64,000 nt of DNA from Chloroflexota bacterium (GCA_043812795.1 JBDRLU010000033.1:27763-91762); one strand, 5' to 3'; counted from the first letter of the stretch, positions 4,970 through 54,736 are shown. Program-made: numbers and translations. The notes: generated by a model not told the origin, from the sequence alone.

Positions 4970-6028
4970 ATGCACAGAGTTTTGGTGATAAACCCCGGGT
5001 CAACCAGCACAGAAATTAACCTGTTCGAGGATGAGAGGGAAATAAGGACGGCACGGATGGTGCACCCGGTCGAGGACCTGAGAAAACTCACGAAGATAAT
5101 CGACCAGTTTCCCTACCGGAACGAGATCGTCAAGGCAAAAGTGGCCGAATGGGGGTTGAAGAGAGGCGATTTGGCGGCCGTGGTGGGACGGAGTGGCTTT
5201 CGCCTGAAGGAAAGCGGAGCCTACGGGGTCAATCAGAAGATGGTCGATGATGTGAAGGCCGGTCGGGTGCGGGTAGAGCATGCCTCCGTCCTTGGTGGTT
5301 TGCTGGCGAAAGAAATCGGCGATGCCTATGGTGCGCCCCCTTTCATTGCTCATACCGCGGCTCGTGATTTGGAGCCAATCGCTAAGGTCACAGGTATTCC
5401 TCAAATCGAAAGAAGGCCGGCTTATCATGTGCAGAATATTGTGGCCGTGGCGATACTGGCGGCCGTGACCATGAAAAAAGATATCAAAACGGTAAATTTT
5501 GTCGTTGCTCATCTCGAGGGCGGTATGTCGGTTGCCGCCGTGAGGGGTGGCGAAGTTATCGATGCCACCAGCGCCATGGACGAAGGGCCGTTCACGATGG
5601 AGCGTAGCGGAAACTTACCCGGAGTCTCCCTTATCGAGCTGTGCTTTTCCGGCAAATATACCAGAGAACAGATGTTAAAGCTGATAAGAGGCGAGGGGGG
5701 TATGGTGGCTTACCTGGGAACGAACAAATTCAGCGATGTCGAGGACAGAGTAAATCAGGGCGATGAGAAGGCGAAGTTTTACCTGGAGGCGATGTGCTAC
5801 CAGGCGGCCAAAGACATCGGAGCGATGGCGACCGTGCTAAAGGGTAAGGTTGATGCCGTCATCCTTACCGGTAAGATTCTGGATTCGAAAACTGCGGTCA
5901 ACTGGATAAAAGAGAGAGTTAAGTTTATTGCGCCGGTCGAGACATACCCGGAACAGGAAGCGTTGGTCTTTGTACAGGCGGGACTGAAGGTACTGCGCGG
6001 TGAGGAAAAGGCCAGGAAGTACGAGTAG
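4970..6028 (+). CDS. buk: butyrate kinase
   Basis: MHRVLVINPGSTSTEI..., EHASVLGG, VVAHLEGGMSVAA, ERSGNLP and LRGEEK are colinear with Buk. ATG 4970 follows GGAGGCGG, whereas the longer ORF start at 4904 would overlap ltaE. Confidence 0.8.
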   Translation: MHRVLVINPGSTSTEINLFEDEREIRTARMVHPVEDLRKLTKIIDQFPYRNEIVKAKVAEWGLKRGDLAAVVGRSGFRLKESGAYGVNQKMVDDVKAGRVRVEHASVLGGLLAKEIGDAYGAPPFIAHTAARDLEPIAKVTGIPQIERRPAYHVQNIVAVAILAAVTMKKDIKTVNFVVAHLEGGMSVAAVRGGEVIDATSAMDEGPFTMERSGNLPGVSLIELCFSGKYTREQMLKLIRGEGGMVAYLGTNKFSDVEDRVNQGDEKAKFYLEAMCYQAAKDIGAMATVLKGKVDAVILTGKILDSKTAVNWIKERVKFIAPVETYPEQEALVFVQAGLKVLRGEEKARKYE

Positions 6029-6124: not shown

Positions 6125-6874
6125 ATGGGAAAGATAGTTGCTATCGGTGGAGGACACATTGGAAGCCTGGGTCAACCTATCGAAACTACCGAAATAGATA
6201 AAGAAATAGTCAGACTGAGTGAGAGTAATAGCCCGAGACTGCTCTTTATTCCAACAGCAAGCACTGATGCTGAGTCGTATGTGGAAGCGGTTGACAACCA
6301 TTTCGGAAAAGACCTTGGCTGTATTATTGATACGCTATTTTTGATAAAAGAAAAACCTGGTATCTCGGAAATAAGGGAAAGGGTATTTAATGCGAACATT
6401 ATCTATGTCGGTGGTGGCAATACCCTAAAGATGCTAAGGATATGGCGGGGTCTTGGTGTAGATAATGTCCTTCATGAAGCTTACGGGAGAGGTGTAGTAA
6501 TGTCTGGACTTAGTGCTGGAGCAATATGTTGGTTCAAATACTGTAGCTCCGATTCAAGAAAATTTGCCAATCCAAATGCCGGATTGATTAAGATTACGGG
6601 TTTAAATTTTATCGATGCCTTGTGCTGTCCTCATTACAATACCGAGGCAGACAGAAAACCGCATCTTAAAGCATTAATGAGGAAAACATCGGGAGTCGCA
6701 TTGGCTATCGATGACTGCTGCGCCTTCGAGGTCATGGACGATAAATATAGAGTCATCGGCTCAAAAGAAGATGCCAACGCCTACAAAGTGTATTGGAGAA
6801 AGGGAGAATTCTACGAGGAAATCATCAAGAAACAGACGGGATTTCTAACGTTAAATAGCCTTTTGGCGAAGTGA
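6125..6874 (+). CDS. peptidase S51 family (dipeptidase E-like)
   Basis: YVGGGNTLKML, the nucleophile context SGLSAGAICWF and CCPHY match the S51 Ser-His arrangement. The gene is visibly more AT-rich than its flanks. Confidence 0.7.
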   Translation: MGKIVAIGGGHIGSLGQPIETTEIDKEIVRLSESNSPRLLFIPTASTDAESYVEAVDNHFGKDLGCIIDTLFLIKEKPGISEIRERVFNANIIYVGGGNTLKMLRIWRGLGVDNVLHEAYGRGVVMSGLSAGAICWFKYCSSDSRKFANPNAGLIKITGLNFIDALCCPHYNTEADRKPHLKALMRKTSGVALAIDDCCAFEVMDDKYRVIGSKEDANAYKVYWRKGEFYEEIIKKQTGFLTLNSLLAK

Positions 6875-50653: not shown

Positions 50654-50941
50654 ATCCGGTCTGCCTCCTCTAAGTTAACCGAGGACATTATATACGGTAA
50701 GGCTGGTTCGACTCAATGGGAAGGGTTTTGGTCAGCAGTATATATCTGGACTTTAGCATTATTATGGAGTCTGAATGCCGATGATGCGGCGAAGACACAA
50801 AAAGTTTAGCCTGTTTGACAACCTTAACAAGATGTAAGATTACAAAGTAGGTTGAAAGCCTCTATGATAGTACTAATCTTACACAAAGAAGTTAACTCGA
50901 TGAAGGCCGCCACAAGACCGACTAAAACACTTAGATATATA

Positions 50942-51724
50942 CTAGAGCAAGTTGGACTGTTTCCACCTTCTATCAAAGTTCTCGTTTAATGCTTCGTAAA
51001 TGTTCTTACTACTCGCTTCATCCAACATGATAGCAAATGATTCCTTCGCGCCCAAATCCTTTATACTGTGACCGAGAAGTACTACAGAACTCGGAGAAAT
51101 AATGTATCTATCATGCAAATCAGTGTTAGGATAATTCCCGAAATCGATATTAGGATTTTCTGATTTGAAATCCTTAAGTTCCCTGAGCAACTTAGTTCTT
51201 GCATTCGTGTTTGTAATGTTTTCGATCCTAGTCAAGAATTTGATAGGTCTTCCTTTCACCTCTTTTACAATATCAAGTGTTCTCTCGCTACAATAGGGGT
51301 CTACAATCTTTATCTCACCATCAAGCGTGTTTAAGATGCTATTTGCTAAAATCCTTTTACTTGAATATCTCTGCTCAGGTTCGAAATAGAGTATCTCTAA
51401 CTCGCCCTCTCCTCTGAGAGACTTCAACTGTTCTTTGCCAGGTTTCATTATCTCGTAATAAACCCCGCTACTTTGCAGGTTAGTATAGATTCTGTCACCA
51501 GCTCTATTGAGAGATTGTGTTATGCTCGTTACTTTGATGTTTACCTCTTGTACATCCCGGAGGATAGAAGCTATTTGTTCTGCAGTCAATCTCTTTATTA
51601 ACAATTTGTCTTTAGCAACCCAAAGAATCCATAATGCCCGCTCGAGGATTGTATTACAATCCTCGAGCCGAGGGATGTCGCTAATGTCAGCGGTTAAGAA
51701 TCTCTCCTGGATGGTTAAGGCCAT
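50942..51724 (-). CDS. hypothetical protein: N-terminal winged-helix-like module + C-terminal degenerate PLD/MIT_C-like domain (DPY...LHDRYII...LLGHS)
   Basis: This 260-aa ORF is the last gene of an AT-rich cassette. The C-terminal half reads IKIVDPYCSERTLDIV...FLTRIEN...DLHDRYIISPSSVVLLGHSIKDLG. It resembles a single HxK-like PLD motif with K replaced by R, as in the MITD1 C-terminal PLD-like fold. The assignment is by eye. Confidence 0.5.
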   Translation of the reverse strand: MALTIQERFLTADISDIPRLEDCNTILERALWILWVAKDKLLIKRLTAEQIASILRDVQEVNIKVTSITQSLNRAGDRIYTNLQSSGVYYEIMKPGKEQLKSLRGEGELEILYFEPEQRYSSKRILANSILNTLDGEIKIVDPYCSERTLDIVKEVKGRPIKFLTRIENITNTNARTKLLRELKDFKSENPNIDFGNYPNTDLHDRYIISPSSVVLLGHSIKDLGAKESFAIMLDEASSKNIYEALNENFDRRWKQSNLL

Positions 51725-51730
51725 ATTATT

Positions 51731-52141
51731 TTACTTCTCCACGAATCCGCCTTCTACAAGTTGCTCACCCGTGTTAGTCAGAACCAATGCCTTCGCTTTA
51801 TCCTTTTTCTCTTTATCTTCCATCATGTAACCCTTTTTAATATTGTAAAACACCGCTAGATGTATGTTTTTTGGGAAGGGTTCTTTAGCTGATCTGAAGC
51901 CATTTTCCAAGTCGCTAACATTAAAAGGTGATACCGATTCATGCTTCTCAAGATAGTACCCTATCACCAACGTTTTATGGATTCCGCTTTTAGGTTTCTT
52001 AGACAACAGGAATTCTTTTAGGGACATCTTCTTTGGTGAACTACTCGGCTCAGTTTGAGATTTCGATTCTAATTTACTAATTCTTTTTTCATGGTCTTCC
52101 ATTTGCTTTTTTAATGCGTTGAGCGTATCTTCAACTGACAT
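51731..52141 (-). CDS. hypothetical protein: N-terminal coiled-coil + winged-helix-like module
   Basis: This 136-aa ORF overlaps the upstream gene by 11 nt and lies 6 nt from the downstream gene. Its pattern is TLVIGYYLEKH...FNVSDLENGFRSA...PKNIHLAVFYNIKKGYM...LTNTGEQLVE. Confidence 0.5.
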   Translation of the reverse strand: MSVEDTLNALKKQMEDHEKRISKLESKSQTEPSSSPKKMSLKEFLLSKKPKSGIHKTLVIGYYLEKHESVSPFNVSDLENGFRSAKEPFPKNIHLAVFYNIKKGYMMEDKEKKDKAKALVLTNTGEQLVEGGFVEK

Positions 52142-52571
52142 CCTTCTTGCCCTCCTTGCTCACCTTTTTGAGCATATCTTTGAGTGATTTCTCAACAACA
52201 TTCAAGGCTACCACATGATAACTTAACTTCCCTTTTGTAGTCGTCTTGATCTTATTATCATCTCGAAGGGTTTTTAGCCAAGGCAGCAGAGAACCTTTAG
52301 GAACACCTAATTCATCCATCAATTCACTATTACTCGCATCATCGGTAGGAGTTAATTCAGCTTCTTTAGCATATAACTTGCCAATCAAATAAAGTATGAT
52401 GCATTCCGTACCTGTCAGTTTATCCTTGGGTAGAACGTCAATCTTACCGTCTTTGGTGATTCGAATTAGTTGCTTCGCAAGGTCAAAATTCTTTTCAAGT
52501 GCACTTCCATAATCAACAGTCATCTCTTCAATTATTTTTCGTTTCAAGGTACTAAGAGTTTGATTGGCCAT
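52131..52571 (-). CDS. hypothetical protein with winged-helix-like module
   Basis: This 146-aa ORF is the first gene of the cassette, and GGAAGGTGA precedes the ATG. Its pattern is ECIILYLIGKLY...SNSELMDELGVPKGSLLPWLKTLRDDNKI...KGKLSYHV. Confidence 0.5.
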   Translation of the reverse strand: MANQTLSTLKRKIIEEMTVDYGSALEKNFDLAKQLIRITKDGKIDVLPKDKLTGTECIILYLIGKLYAKEAELTPTDDASNSELMDELGVPKGSLLPWLKTLRDDNKIKTTTKGKLSYHVVALNVVEKSLKDMLKKVSKEGKKDVS

Positions 52572-52608
52572 ATATCACCTTCCAAATATAATAATAATCT
52601 ATATACAA

Positions 52609-52638
52609 GCATAATCCTAATTTAGTATAATGTCAAGG
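52609..52638 (-). promoter_or_regulatory. possible promoter of the three-gene cassette
   Basis: On the minus strand: TTGACA (52638-52633), an 18-nt spacer, then TATGCT (52614-52609). It sits in a very AT-rich 280-nt upstream region. Confidence 0.3.
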
Positions 52639-52850
52639 GCTTTCTGTCTATGTTCGTATTAGTATTTATAATCCAATAATTCTTCGAACCATGCATAGAT
52701 TATTTTTATACTATCTTATTTATGTATGGCAAAAATCAAGGTGTGTGAAAAGCTCTGGCTTCACTAACATCCACTGCTGTGGAGAAATAGAATTTGCTGA
52801 AGTAGCGGAACGGCTGCCGGTATTCTAGCTCACGTACGTCTTACCCGGGG

Positions 52851-53582
52851 TTATTTATAAATCGAAGACATAAAAGTAATATAGTAAATTTCGCCGGACT
52901 TGTAGGTGCCGACAGCGCCATAGGTATTCAGGTCGTTGATAAGCACGTTTTCGTAATCATAAACATTTACTGTCCAGGTTATCAGGGCGGCATTGGCCAC
53001 CTGCTCGACCGTGCCGTAGCGTATCGCCCAGAAAACGTTTTGATAGACGCCACCCAGGCTGGAGTAATGGTATTTCCCCAGGGCCGCCATTTCCTTGCTG
53101 TTCTGGAGGGCCAGCCCGTAAAGGTTTACTCCCCACTGGAGTTCAGGAACACCGGCTTTTCTCCGTTCGGCGTTGATGATGGCGAAGATAGTCTGGTCGA
53201 TTTCATCTTCTTTTAGTGCCGTTGTCCCCGAAATCATGGCATCATATTTACTTTGCAGGTCGGCGAATTTATCATTCAGTTCGCTATATCTGGTATTCAG
53301 GTCGTCGTAGTTAGCCTGGGCAGTCTGGATGGCCGCCGTTTGCGTTTCATATTGTTTTTGCAGGTCTTCATAGCGGGTATTCAAGGCCTGATATTGGGCG
53401 TCGCCAAGATTGGCGGCGTTGAGTTGCGACTGCAGGGCGGCGACCTGTCCTTTGACGGTCTCCAGTTCGGCCTTCACGGCATCGTACTCTTGCTGGGATA
53501 CCCCTGATTTGCAGCCAAGCATCGTCGCCAGAATAACGATTGACAGAAGCGAAAAGAGACTGATTTTTATTTTCCTGGCCAT
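52851..53582 (-). CDS. lipoprotein with coiled-coil region and C-terminal CAP/SCP (YkwD-like) domain
   Basis: The signal peptide plus lipobox is LSIVILATMLGC. A Q/A/L-rich heptad region follows, then INAERRKAGVPELQW...NSKEMAALGKYHYS, typical of CAP domains. Confidence 0.7.
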   Translation of the reverse strand: MARKIKISLFSLLSIVILATMLGCKSGVSQQEYDAVKAELETVKGQVAALQSQLNAANLGDAQYQALNTRYEDLQKQYETQTAAIQTAQANYDDLNTRYSELNDKFADLQSKYDAMISGTTALKEDEIDQTIFAIINAERRKAGVPELQWGVNLYGLALQNSKEMAALGKYHYSSLGGVYQNVFWAIRYGTVEQVANAALITWTVNVYDYENVLINDLNTYGAVGTYKSGEIYYITFMSSIYK

Positions 53583-53741: not shown

Positions 53742-53816
53742 TGGAGCGGGTGATGGGATTCGAACCCACGACGTCTTGCTTGGGAAGCAAGCACTCTACC
53801 GCTGAGTTACACCCGC
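53742..53816 (-). tRNA. tRNA-Gly (anticodon CCC), CCA encoded
   Basis: I folded the cloverleaf by hand. The acceptor stem is GCGGGTG/CACCCGC and the D stem ACTC/GAGT. The anticodon stem CTTGC/GCAAG carries the loop TTCCCAA. The T arm is GTGGG-TTCGAAT-CCCAT, followed by discriminator T and CCA. Confidence 0.9.
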
Positions 53817-53905: not shown

Positions 53906-54736
53906 TTATCCTTTTGGAGCGGCAACCGGGCAGGCGGGAGTAAGACCAGCTTCGGCAATCCGGAGCAGAGAGCTCTTACCGGATTCGGACAGCCCGAAGG
54001 TATCCAGATTCTTCTTGAGGGTATCCAAATCACCAAAGCCGCCGGCGTACCCGTTCAAGCGGGCGATTGCGGTAGAGTCCCGGAAACTTTCAGGCTCCGG
54101 GTAAATTTTGTATAAGGTATCCACCACGTCATGCCTTAGTTTCAAATAATACTTCTGGTGATAGTCCTCGGCCACATAAAAAGCGGTAAAGGGTTCGATG
54201 CCCGTGTAGACGGTCTTGCCCAGCCTTGCCTCTTCTGCCTGTCTGGACTCGATGGCGAGTTTATGCTGTTCTTCATTGGTATAAAAGATAGCCGACCGAT
54301 ATTGTTCCGAATAAGGTTGACTGGTGATATCGTGCCCGCTCCAGAAGGCGGTTAATAATTGCTGGTAAGAGACAACGGACGGGTCGTATTCAACCGCCAC
54401 GGTCTCGCTATGGTCGCCGATGTTGTAGTAAGTGGGCGCCGCCGTCGTGCCTCCGGCATACCCTACCCTGGTGCGGATAACTCCTTCGATACTCCCGAAC
54501 TGGGAGTCGGCACCCCAGAATCAGCCCAGGGCGAAATAAGCCGTCTCCACAGAGTTGTGAGGTACCGTATCCAGCAAAGGCGGCTCCAGCTTTGCCGATG
54601 GAATAGCTGAATAATCGCTGCTATTTATCGAACGCTTACATCCGAACATCGGAAAAACACTCACCAAAGTCAAGAAGACTAAAATCGATAGGCCTATTTT
54701 CCCAGACATGAGTTTGCCAACTACTTTACATATCAT
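53906..54736 (-). CDS. msrA: peptide-methionine (S)-S-oxide reductase MsrA, predicted selenoprotein (in-frame TGA at 54521-54523) with lipoprotein signal and C-terminal extension
   Basis: ORFs 54521-54736 and 53906-54400 are in one frame with a single TGA between them. The read-through is ...ETAYFALG-U-FWGADSQFGSIEGVIRTRVGYAGGTTAAPTYYNIGDHSETVAVEYDP..., and the TGA replaces the Cys of the GCFWG active site. The N-terminus is MSGKIGLSILVFLTLVSVFPMFGC. Confidence 0.7.
54491..54507 (-). promoter_or_regulatory. candidate bacterial SECIS hairpin
   Basis: On the minus strand: ACUCCC-AGUUC-GGGAGU (6-bp stem with GU in the loop), starting 13 nt after the UGA. Confidence 0.45.

Follow-up and report, generated by a model that had tools for sequence, protein, structure and literature searches.

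The cassette formed by the genes pA, pB, and pC occupies positions 50,942 to 52,571 on the minus strand of a 64,000-nucleotide stretch of DNA from a Chloroflexota bacterium (GCA_043812795.1, JBDRLU010000033.1:27763-91762), the whole of which is called the window here. It is read as a self-contained, horizontally mobile, three-component DNA-targeting conflict module, acting in defence or addiction, with pC as its predicted dimeric nuclease effector, and this reading is given about an even chance of being correct. The gene structure, the folds, the conservation of the motifs, the linkage of the genes, the horizontal spread across two domains of life, and the foreign composition are firmly established. 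The features that carry the argument are given below in window coordinates.

52571..52131, minus strand: pA, an open reading frame (ORF) of 146 amino acids (aa).
52141..51731, minus strand: pB, an ORF of 136 aa.
51724..50942, minus strand: pC, an ORF of 260 aa and the constant core of the cassette, in which a winged helix is fused to an MITD1-type domain of the phospholipase D (PLD) fold.
51440..51667, minus strand: winged-helix domain of pC, residues 20-95, with the model elements H26-39, H48-57, H65-73, E79-84, and E87-92.
50951..51406, minus strand: PLD-fold, MIT_C-like domain of pC, residues 107-258, defined by Foldseek and profile matches.
51293..51301, minus strand: D142-P-Y144, with the acidic residue right after the second strand of the PLD domain (strand 138-141).
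51104..51115, minus strand: H204-D-R-Y207, a derived HxK-type motif right before the fifth strand (207-209).
52597..52690, minus strand: promoter/leader region, which travels with the cassette; DNA homology to the closest relative (locus L007) ends at window position 52682.
~50,700..52,900 (~2.2 kb): low-GC tract that holds the cassette, with a guanine-plus-cytosine (GC) fraction of 0.30-0.45 vs 0.5-0.67 in the flanks.

The three ORFs have the positions and lengths given in an earlier note on this DNA, and they are real genes rather than chance ORFs because each has hundreds of conserved homologs. At E ≤ 1e-3, 644 homologs of pA, 332 of pB, and 571 of pC were found, all unnamed and all without Pfam domains; the top 120 pC homologs share 56-79% identity. 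The genes are packed as an operon, as the note had also proposed, with an 11-nucleotide (nt) overlap between pA and pB and 6 nt between the pB stop and the pC start. A consensus scan places a sigma-70-like promoter (TTGACA-17-TATGCT) at 52636..52608 on the minus strand, 5′ of pA, and an AGGTGA ribosome-binding site is read at 52580-52575, ahead of pA.

pC was modeled with AlphaFold2 from 26 homologs, yielding a mean predicted local distance difference test score (pLDDT) of 81.7 and mostly 85-94 in the C-terminal domain. The model takes on an N-terminal unit of three helices and a β-hairpin, followed by a low-confidence linker and a C-terminal α/β domain. Foldseek returns 47 matches in the PDB at E ≤ 1e-3, and apart from the chains of TrmBL2 all of them are PLD-superfamily proteins, so that pC fits this superfamily at the level of the fold. 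The domain-level matches comprise FAM83/DUF1669, NucT, MITD1, bacterial PLDs, PLD3/4, and the NgoAVII R protein (E 1e-4 to 2.5e-7) as well as vaccinia F13 and PPK1, with TM-scores of ~0.55-0.6 on single-domain targets.

The sequence evidence comes from two profiles, a shallow one (A1) and one of 110 divergent representatives of the pC family with 22-50% identity to pC (A2). Sequence searches of the PDB with pC, A1, and A2 recovered no relatives, and an hhalign comparison of A1 with MITD1 gave nothing. A2, however, gives a colinear alignment with MITD1 of 85 columns, in which the DPY, LT, HDR, and G positions coincide (pairwise E 0.002). Eight of the 110 relatives match Pfam MIT_C (best E 7.2e-6) and eight match PLDc_2; the MIT_C matches that were inspected individually lie in the C-terminal half and below the 25-bit cut-off. 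Together with Foldseek E-values of 1e-5 to 1e-7, these results bear out the PLD/MIT_C-like C-terminus that had been proposed for pC from the sequence.

H204, D205, R206, and G218 are invariant in all 110 representatives of A2, D142, Y207, K222, D223, G225, and S229 are kept in at least 90% of them, and the complete DPY triplet (D142-P-Y144) is invariant in A1. The DPY and HDRY motifs quoted in the earlier note are present in the sequence, and their conservation among homologs, which the note had set beforehand as a test that could refute it, holds for D142 (≥90%) and for H204-D-R206 (invariant). With G218 at H+14, pC has the spacing that is canonical for HKD motifs, and S220 and K222 come next. 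The canonical pattern HxK(x)4D(x)6G(S/T)xN itself is absent from pC, which has H204-D-R206 ... G218-H-S220-I-K222: the histidine is kept, the lysine is changed to arginine, no aspartate is found at H+7, and GSxN becomes GxSxK.

The HDR-type PLD domain falls into 462 representative clusters at 50% identity and is almost always C-terminal in a protein of ~260 aa. In distant relatives the N-terminal winged helix is swapped for a DnaJ-type zinc finger; this CXXCXGXG subfamily of 220-250 aa, in which the HDR-type PLD domain is kept, comprises P0173, P0176, P0180, P0227, P0244, P0260, P0261, and P0266. A further relative, P0218, carries pentapeptide repeats in place of the winged helix.

pC shares with the MIT_C domain of MITD1 (PF16565; PDB-IDs 2ymb and 4a5z) a PLD-like fold (Foldseek E 4e-6, TM-score on target 0.57) that bears the DPY and HDR motifs, and the colinear order DPY ... 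LT ... HDR ... G, for which the MITD1 sequence was checked against 2ymb_A. The two proteins differ in their N-termini, a winged helix in pC (a DnaJ-type zinc finger in the subfamily) and a MIT domain in MITD1, and in their context, which is a prokaryotic operon for pC; pC itself also misses the Pfam MIT_C model. What MITD1 is known to bind is membrane rather than DNA. No match to the Pfam MIT domain was found in pC or the 110 relatives.

A comparable site has been described for the PB-PLD1 effector domain of NsnC from the Menshen system, which has an acidic residue after β2 and HDR before β5 and is predicted to be a nuclease (PMC12065111). Its site is called “highly similar” to that of MIT_C, and the domain also occurs at many BrxL C-termini (PMC12065111). 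In pC, D142 likewise follows β2, and H204-D-R precedes β5. Unlike NsnC, pC lacks the inPIN N-terminal domain and the operon partners NsnA (ParB-like) and NsnB (an ATPase), and unlike BrxL it has no Lon/AAA+ module. A PADLOC scan of pA, pB, and pC gave no match to Menshen.

The MITD1-like PLD domains of DruE form the DNase of the Druantia antiviral system (2026 preprint, bioRxiv 10.64898/2026.05.13.724313). The DruE pocket is constructed from Asp1740, His1830, Asp1917-Arg1918-Tyr1919, Arg1951, His1999, Arg2001, and Ser2022; the variants D1740A, D1917A, and R1918A abolish defence, and D1740A abolishes the degradation of single-stranded DNA in vitro (bioRxiv 10.64898/2026.05.13.724313). The invariant residues of pC belong to the same classes as those of this pocket, in a comparison made by residue class only, and pC has a faint PADLOC match to DruE in its PLD region (E 0.054). 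The architectures are different: DruE joins a superfamily 2 (SF2) helicase core to tandem MITD1-like PLD domains, whereas pC has 260 aa and one PLD-like domain on a winged helix. The pC partners, two small wHTH (winged helix-turn-helix) proteins, are unlike the Menshen, BrxL, and DruE setups. The view of the earlier note that the products are not homologous to any family is not supported for pC, as the HDR-type MIT_C-like domain is already described (PMC12065111) and acts as a DNase in DruE (bioRxiv 10.64898/2026.05.13.724313).

The note had also expected no match in PADLOC, which is true of pA and pB but not of pC. Residues ~115-248 of pC match both models of the PADLOC candidate PDC-S05 (E 2.9e-12 and 5.5e-11), with a match confined to profile positions 185-302 of 306, toward the C-terminus; the N-terminal RhuM region is absent from pC. 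Pfam Virulence_RhuM has no match in pC or the 110 relatives, and PDC-S05 is a single-gene RhuM-domain system, unlike the three-gene operon of the cassette. In a cold-seep preprint, T7, T5, and T4 plated 10- to 1000-fold less efficiently in the presence of one PDC-S05 representative. pC further matches NCBIfam VPA1262_N_dom (E 2e-6), with 26.9 bits against a curated cut-off of 80 bits; VPA1262 belongs to the cargo carried by a GMT mobile island.

The single-motif PLD nucleases Nuc/NucT, BfiI, and the NgoAVII R protein resemble pC in fold (NucT 6ehi, E 1.7e-6; NgoAVII 4rct, E 2e-4), in a fused DNA-binding domain, and in the presence of one H-x-basic motif per chain with glycine at H+14. The single motif with this spacing implies a dimeric active site. 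They differ from pC in the motif itself (HxR...GxSxK in pC vs HxK(x)4D(x)6GSxN), and no match is found at the level of sequence.

The two partners of pC are small winged-helix proteins. In pB, a long, coiled-coil-like helix at the N-terminus (residues 3-28, “HEKRISKLE”) is joined by a low-complexity linker to a winged helix (residues 41-130). Its AlphaFold2 model has a pLDDT of 84.2, and all the PDB matches listed by Foldseek are DNA binders with wHTH folds of the MarR/MepR/PadR/AspA type (E 2e-3 to 2e-2). pA consists of a ~50-aa N-terminal region and a C-terminal winged helix (residues ~55-130). When a pA profile of 26 diverse members (A5) was searched against the PDB, ~60 of 62 matches were wHTH regulators aligned at residues ~70-130, among them HlyU, Lrp/AsnC, AdcR, SmtB, and MJ223, each marginal (E 0.005-1) and all mutually consistent. 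A winged helix of the MarR/ArsR type is therefore present in pB, by its model and Foldseek, and in pA, by its consistent profile matches; with the model of pC, wHTH modules are found in all three proteins, as had been proposed. Against the MarR/ArsR-type family profiles in Pfam, pA and pB have only subthreshold matches that do not reach the curated cut-off, and members of the pA family weakly match TrmB (four), HTH_IclR, AbiEi_4 (three), and MarR_2 below threshold; the AbiEi_4 matches are the sole hint at a toxin-antitoxin or abortive-infection module. None of the three proteins has an above-threshold match in Pfam, PHROGs, or NCBIfam.

The earlier note had called the three modules related paralogs. 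Their likeness holds at the level of the fold, and B-family proteins occupy slot A in several loci, which is one point for paralogy; specific paralogy was rejected as unproven. In hhalign, a weak colinear signal links the A and B families (E 0.005, probability 7%), and a 22-column match joins the wing of pB to that of pC (E 0.025); the comparison of A, B, and the pC N-terminus gave nothing beyond these two.

The linkage of the genes was followed in a distribution scan with one genome per GTDB species, which recovered 45 loci, every one of them in a metagenome-assembled genome. In ~38 of 41 full-length loci, the pC homolog is directly preceded by two ORFs of 100-230 aa on its strand, and a pC homolog is present in 4/4 loci that were found from pA homologs, so that the three genes co-occur in other genomes, as the note had required. 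pC is the constant part of the cassette, and the two upstream slots, A and B, are polymorphic in the families that they hold. Slot B is occupied by the B family in most loci, and B-family proteins stand in slot A as well in at least nine; A-family proteins occur in 22 loci. Several other small families take the remaining slots, and in most of these a “HEKRIxxLE” helix at the N-terminus is combined with a wHTH-like C-terminus. An N-terminal coiled coil is found in pB and most other slot proteins. Extra proteins of the slot-A/B type (coiled coil and wHTH-like) downstream of pC in L036 (2470-3457) and L026 (6015-6524) suggest that the module also exists in tandem or expanded form. In L008, L014, L021, L022, L025, and L027, the DNA ~20-100 nt upstream of slot A contains AT-rich palindromes of 22-26 nt that are nearly perfect; their sequence has an operator-like look, yet such palindromes may easily arise by chance in AT-rich DNA.

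The bacterial hosts comprise Dehalococcoidia, WOR-3, Coatesbacteria, Nitrospinota, Ignavibacteria, Aminicenantes, Zixibacteria, Planctomycetota, Nitrospirota, Verrucomicrobiota, and Patescibacteria, and the archaeal hosts Bathyarchaeia, Freyarchaeota, Heimdallarchaeota, Aenigmatarchaeota, Micrarchaeota, Methanomassiliicoccales, and Methanosarcinales. Intact copies recur in ~40 loci and retain 50-79% identity across the domains of life. Chloroflexota copies share 50-59% amino acid identity with those of Bathyarchaeia, Asgard, DPANN, and Thermoplasmatota genomes. Two contigs with archaeal-type ribosomal, SRP54, and Rpb4 genes (L001 and L004) carry copies that are 57-59% identical to the Chloroflexota proteins.

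The composition and the boundaries of the cassette also set it apart from its surroundings. The foreign composition that the note had reported for the window recurs in 39/39 other loci, where the GC of the cassette is below that of the flanks (mean 0.37 vs 0.46), and the DNA homology to L007 is restricted to the operon and ~110 bp of promoter. Orthologs of the flanking CoA-transferase (71-74% identity) occur in related contigs without the cassette, in which the upstream synteny is lost too; a search for an empty site by way of this gene found no precise junction. A viral or plasmid origin was rejected, as no relatives were found in IMG/VR viral contigs (a pattern-limited scan), PLSDB plasmids, or BFVD. 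Flanking direct repeats were rejected as target-site duplications, since they are at chance level in 32/33 loci. These include the window, in which a 13-nt direct repeat (12/13 matching, CGAAGACA[C/T]AAAA) stands at both edges of the low-GC tract (50790-50802 and 52863-52875); it is probably due to chance because its length falls within the range of shuffled controls. The one exception is L012, a Coatesbacteria locus with only slot B and pC, in which a 43-nt direct repeat bounds the unit (5014-5056 and 6799-6841) at a spacing of 1,785 nt. The two copies agree perfectly over the first 28 nt, which contain an intrinsic-terminator hairpin and a T-run, and shuffled controls reach at most 13 nt; the repeat could be the footprint of an insertion or recombination event.

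The surroundings of the cassette were surveyed with the 130 nearest ORFs in 37 loci. Most neighbors are housekeeping singletons, and a minority are N6/N4 methyltransferases, integrases, ImmA/IrrE peptidases, Fic and HNH proteins, and ResIII helicases; a nearby integrase is usually missing. A location in a defence island or mobile element, which the note had raised, is not supported: only a minority of the neighbors are restriction-modification, TIR, or integrase genes, and no strong embedding in defence islands was found. Among the pA-anchored loci, the gene right before the cassette, in the same orientation, is a CAP12/Pycsar-type TIR gene in L134 (2705-3832) and L135 (844-1971), and a 923-aa MmeI/Eco57I-like restriction-modification enzyme is convergent beside pC in L132 (1821-4592), a Thermoplasmatota contig.

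An intact N6/N4 DNA methyltransferase gene follows pC directly on the same strand in L011 (3670-5187) and L029 (7065-7838), and N-terminal methyltransferase fragments (“IYLDPPFNS”) follow it in L005 (6793-6984; also in L006) and L010 (5186-5542). The methyltransferases of L005, L010, and L011 are homologous across Chloroflexota and WOR-3, which indicates that they travelled with the cassette and then decayed; the L029 copy is small and unrelated. The cassette clearly survives the loss of the methyltransferase. A conserved fourth gene was rejected, as the small ORF after pC in L005 and L006 is a methyltransferase fragment and methyltransferases occur in one subclade only.

The tRNA that the note had placed next to the cassette, tRNA-Gly(CCC) at 53742-53816, lies 1.17 kb upstream of pA with one gene between, and adjacency to a tRNA was rejected as a general feature (~5/40 loci). 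A tRNA-Gly(TCC)-tRNA-Met pair is found 0.4-1.4 kb downstream of pC in two Dehalococcoidia loci (L005, 8189-8384, and L008, 3443-3638); the side of the tRNA differs, upstream of the cassette in the window and downstream of pC in these loci.

Nuclease activity, dimerisation, the roles of pA and pB, and a defence or addiction phenotype are what we infer for the cassette as a conflict module. In the proposed mechanism, pC would act as the effector, and its N-terminal winged helix would place it on DNA. The single MITD1-type domain (D142, H204-D-R206-Y, and G218/S220/K222) would pair with that of a second pC, and the two paired domains would build one composite phosphodiesterase site, comparable to Nuc and BfiI and to DruE with its two tandem copies. 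pA and pB may bind the AT-rich promoter/operator, pC itself, or both, and would thereby keep pC repressed or inactive, or supply its target specificity. The family-level polymorphism of slots A and B beside a constant pC may reflect diversifying roles as regulators, sensors, or antitoxins.

Several results weigh against this mechanism. The lysine of HxK is replaced by arginine in pC, and pC alone has no match to Pfam MIT_C or PLDc_2 even at E ≤ 10. Conservation of HDR is no proof of catalysis because MITD1 keeps HDR and is yet known as a membrane binder, as it is termed in the title of Hadders et al. 2012 (cited in PMC12065111). The best full-length Foldseek match of pC is TrmBL2, a noncatalytic regulator/chromatin protein (E 2e-8, ~290 columns). 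pA and pB are without a match in PADLOC. The loci have no clear defence-island signature, because restriction-modification or mobile-element genes make up only ~10% of the 130 nearest ORFs, and the neighbors in the window itself are purely metabolic.

The TrmBL2 match leads to the alternative that the trio is a noncatalytic regulator or nucleoid set, in which pC would be TrmB/TrmBL2-like and use its PLD fold for dimerisation or ligand sensing, with pA and pB as coregulators; the trio would control host genes or its own, or coat AT-rich DNA, without cutting. TrmB and TrmBL2 (5bqt, 5box, and 5bpd) are archaeal regulators/chromatin proteins that combine a wHTH with a PLD fold and share with pC the two-domain architecture and nearly the same length. 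The alternative also draws on the winged helices in all three proteins, on the four pA-family members that weakly match the TrmB wHTH, on the operator-like palindromes upstream of slot A, and on the conservation of HDR in MITD1, which is nonenzymatic by reputation. The superposition on TrmBL2 is poor, however, with a TM-score of only 0.38 and a root-mean-square deviation of 16-22 Å, and neither pC nor any of the 110 relatives matches Pfam TrmB (PF01978) or Regulator_TrmB, compared with eight matches each to MIT_C and PLDc_2. pC keeps HDR/D residues of a catalytic type, and its invariant residues are of the classes found in the DruE nuclease pocket, with no sugar-binding set. Conserved neighboring target genes are missing, and the mobile cassette with its patchy distribution over two domains of life and its foreign GC would be unexpected for housekeeping regulators. 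Taken together, we regard the noncatalytic set as rather unlikely.

A PLD-type restriction system in the manner of BfiI and NgoAVII is an improbable explanation. pC would be the R protein with its winged helix for site recognition, pA and pB would be controller (C) proteins, and the cognate methyltransferase would be lost or encoded elsewhere. The Foldseek matches to NgoAVII R and NucT fit this proposal, as do the methyltransferases directly downstream of pC, intact in L011 and L029 and truncated in L010 and L005/L006, and N6_N4_Mtase is the most frequent neighbor family (3/130). Unlike PLD-type restriction enzymes, however, the cassette is usually without a methyltransferase partner: one is adjacent in only ~4/40 loci, in two of which it has decayed while the cassette is intact, and none is near the cassette in the window. 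The cassette evidently needs no such partner, as an unprotected restriction enzyme would be lethal.

It is very improbable that the cassette is a maintenance or mobility module of a mobile element, in which the wHTH proteins would be replication, partition, or excision factors and pC would nick and transfer strands to move it. The cassette is a solitary low-GC insertion of 1.8-2.2 kb in housekeeping surroundings that are unrelated from locus to locus, in bacteria and archaea alike and mostly without a nearby integrase, and the L012 repeat and weak matches of pA and pB to DnaD-like, RepL, and AspA wHTH proteins point in the same direction. PLD-family nucleases work via a covalent phospho-histidine intermediate, which makes transesterification possible in principle. 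Against such a module stand the chance-level flanking repeats of the other loci, the missing viral and plasmid relatives, and a search of the window for terminal inverted repeats, which came up empty; the weak matches to replication proteins go back to the shared winged-helix fold only. A variant with the faintest prospects makes the cassette a minimal mobile element whose pC would use phosphotransferase chemistry for strand transfer, as a previously unknown class of recombinase that inserts a ~2-kb operon, which would explain the solitary foreign-GC cassettes in unrelated housekeeping contexts, the missing integrase, and the 28/43-nt repeat of L012.

A perfect 14+14-nt palindrome (CGGCTCGAGGATTGTA-A-TACAATCCTCGAGCGG, 51638-51670) lies within pC codons ~19-29 and encodes LEDCNTILE; with its flanks it forms 15/16 pairs, at a chance expectation of ~1e-5 in 2.7 kb. 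It occurs in none of ~40 homologous loci and, being unconserved, is ruled out as a feature of the cassette and is specific to the window copy. The flanks of the cassette encode an aldehyde:ferredoxin oxidoreductase, a ThiS-like protein, three family-III CoA-transferases, and a methionine sulfoxide reductase, and a CAP-domain lipoprotein-like gene (243 aa) stands between pA and tRNA-Gly(CCC). The methionine sulfoxide reductase ORF (53906-54400, minus strand) is short at its N-terminus and matches only positions 54-148 of the 153 in the PMSR profile, possibly through a frameshift, a split gene, or a mis-set start. A 71-aa, signal-peptide-like ORF (54521-54736, minus strand) lies just upstream on the same strand.

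With the alternatives weighed, the conflict module with a PLD-type effector is not categorically new, as the class of its effector domain and the general logic of DNA-binding partners and a nuclease are already known. PADLOC v2 contains no full system model that fits the three-gene architecture, neither Pfam nor NCBIfam has a family for it, and no counterpart was found in the searchable literature. Neither the pC family, with its 462 clusters at 50% identity, nor the families of its two partners have a Pfam domain, curated family membership, or functional name, and the sole significant library match of the cassette proteins is the partial one of pC to PDC-S05. The cassette is nevertheless widespread in uncultured anaerobic bacteria and archaea of sediment and groundwater and crosses the boundary between the domains at high identity. 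The fuller claim, that it is an undescribed and functional system of immunity or addiction exchanged between bacteria and archaea, is tentative and falls somewhat short of an even chance. If it is true, the MITD1-type nuclease domain, which Asgard archaea also have, would point to where in prokaryotes eukaryotic MIT_C came from.

A working defence or addiction module of this kind would be a compact, three-gene addition to the short list of immune modules common to archaea and bacteria. It would also offer a minimal model for the chemistry of Druantia-type MITD1 PLD nucleases, with one 150-residue domain on a DNA-binding handle, and would be relevant to the question of whether eukaryotic MITD1 has retained, in latent form, an enzymatic site from prokaryotic domains of this type. 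With its polymorphic winged-helix partners beside a constant effector, the cassette would be a useful case for the exchange of sensing or regulatory modules.

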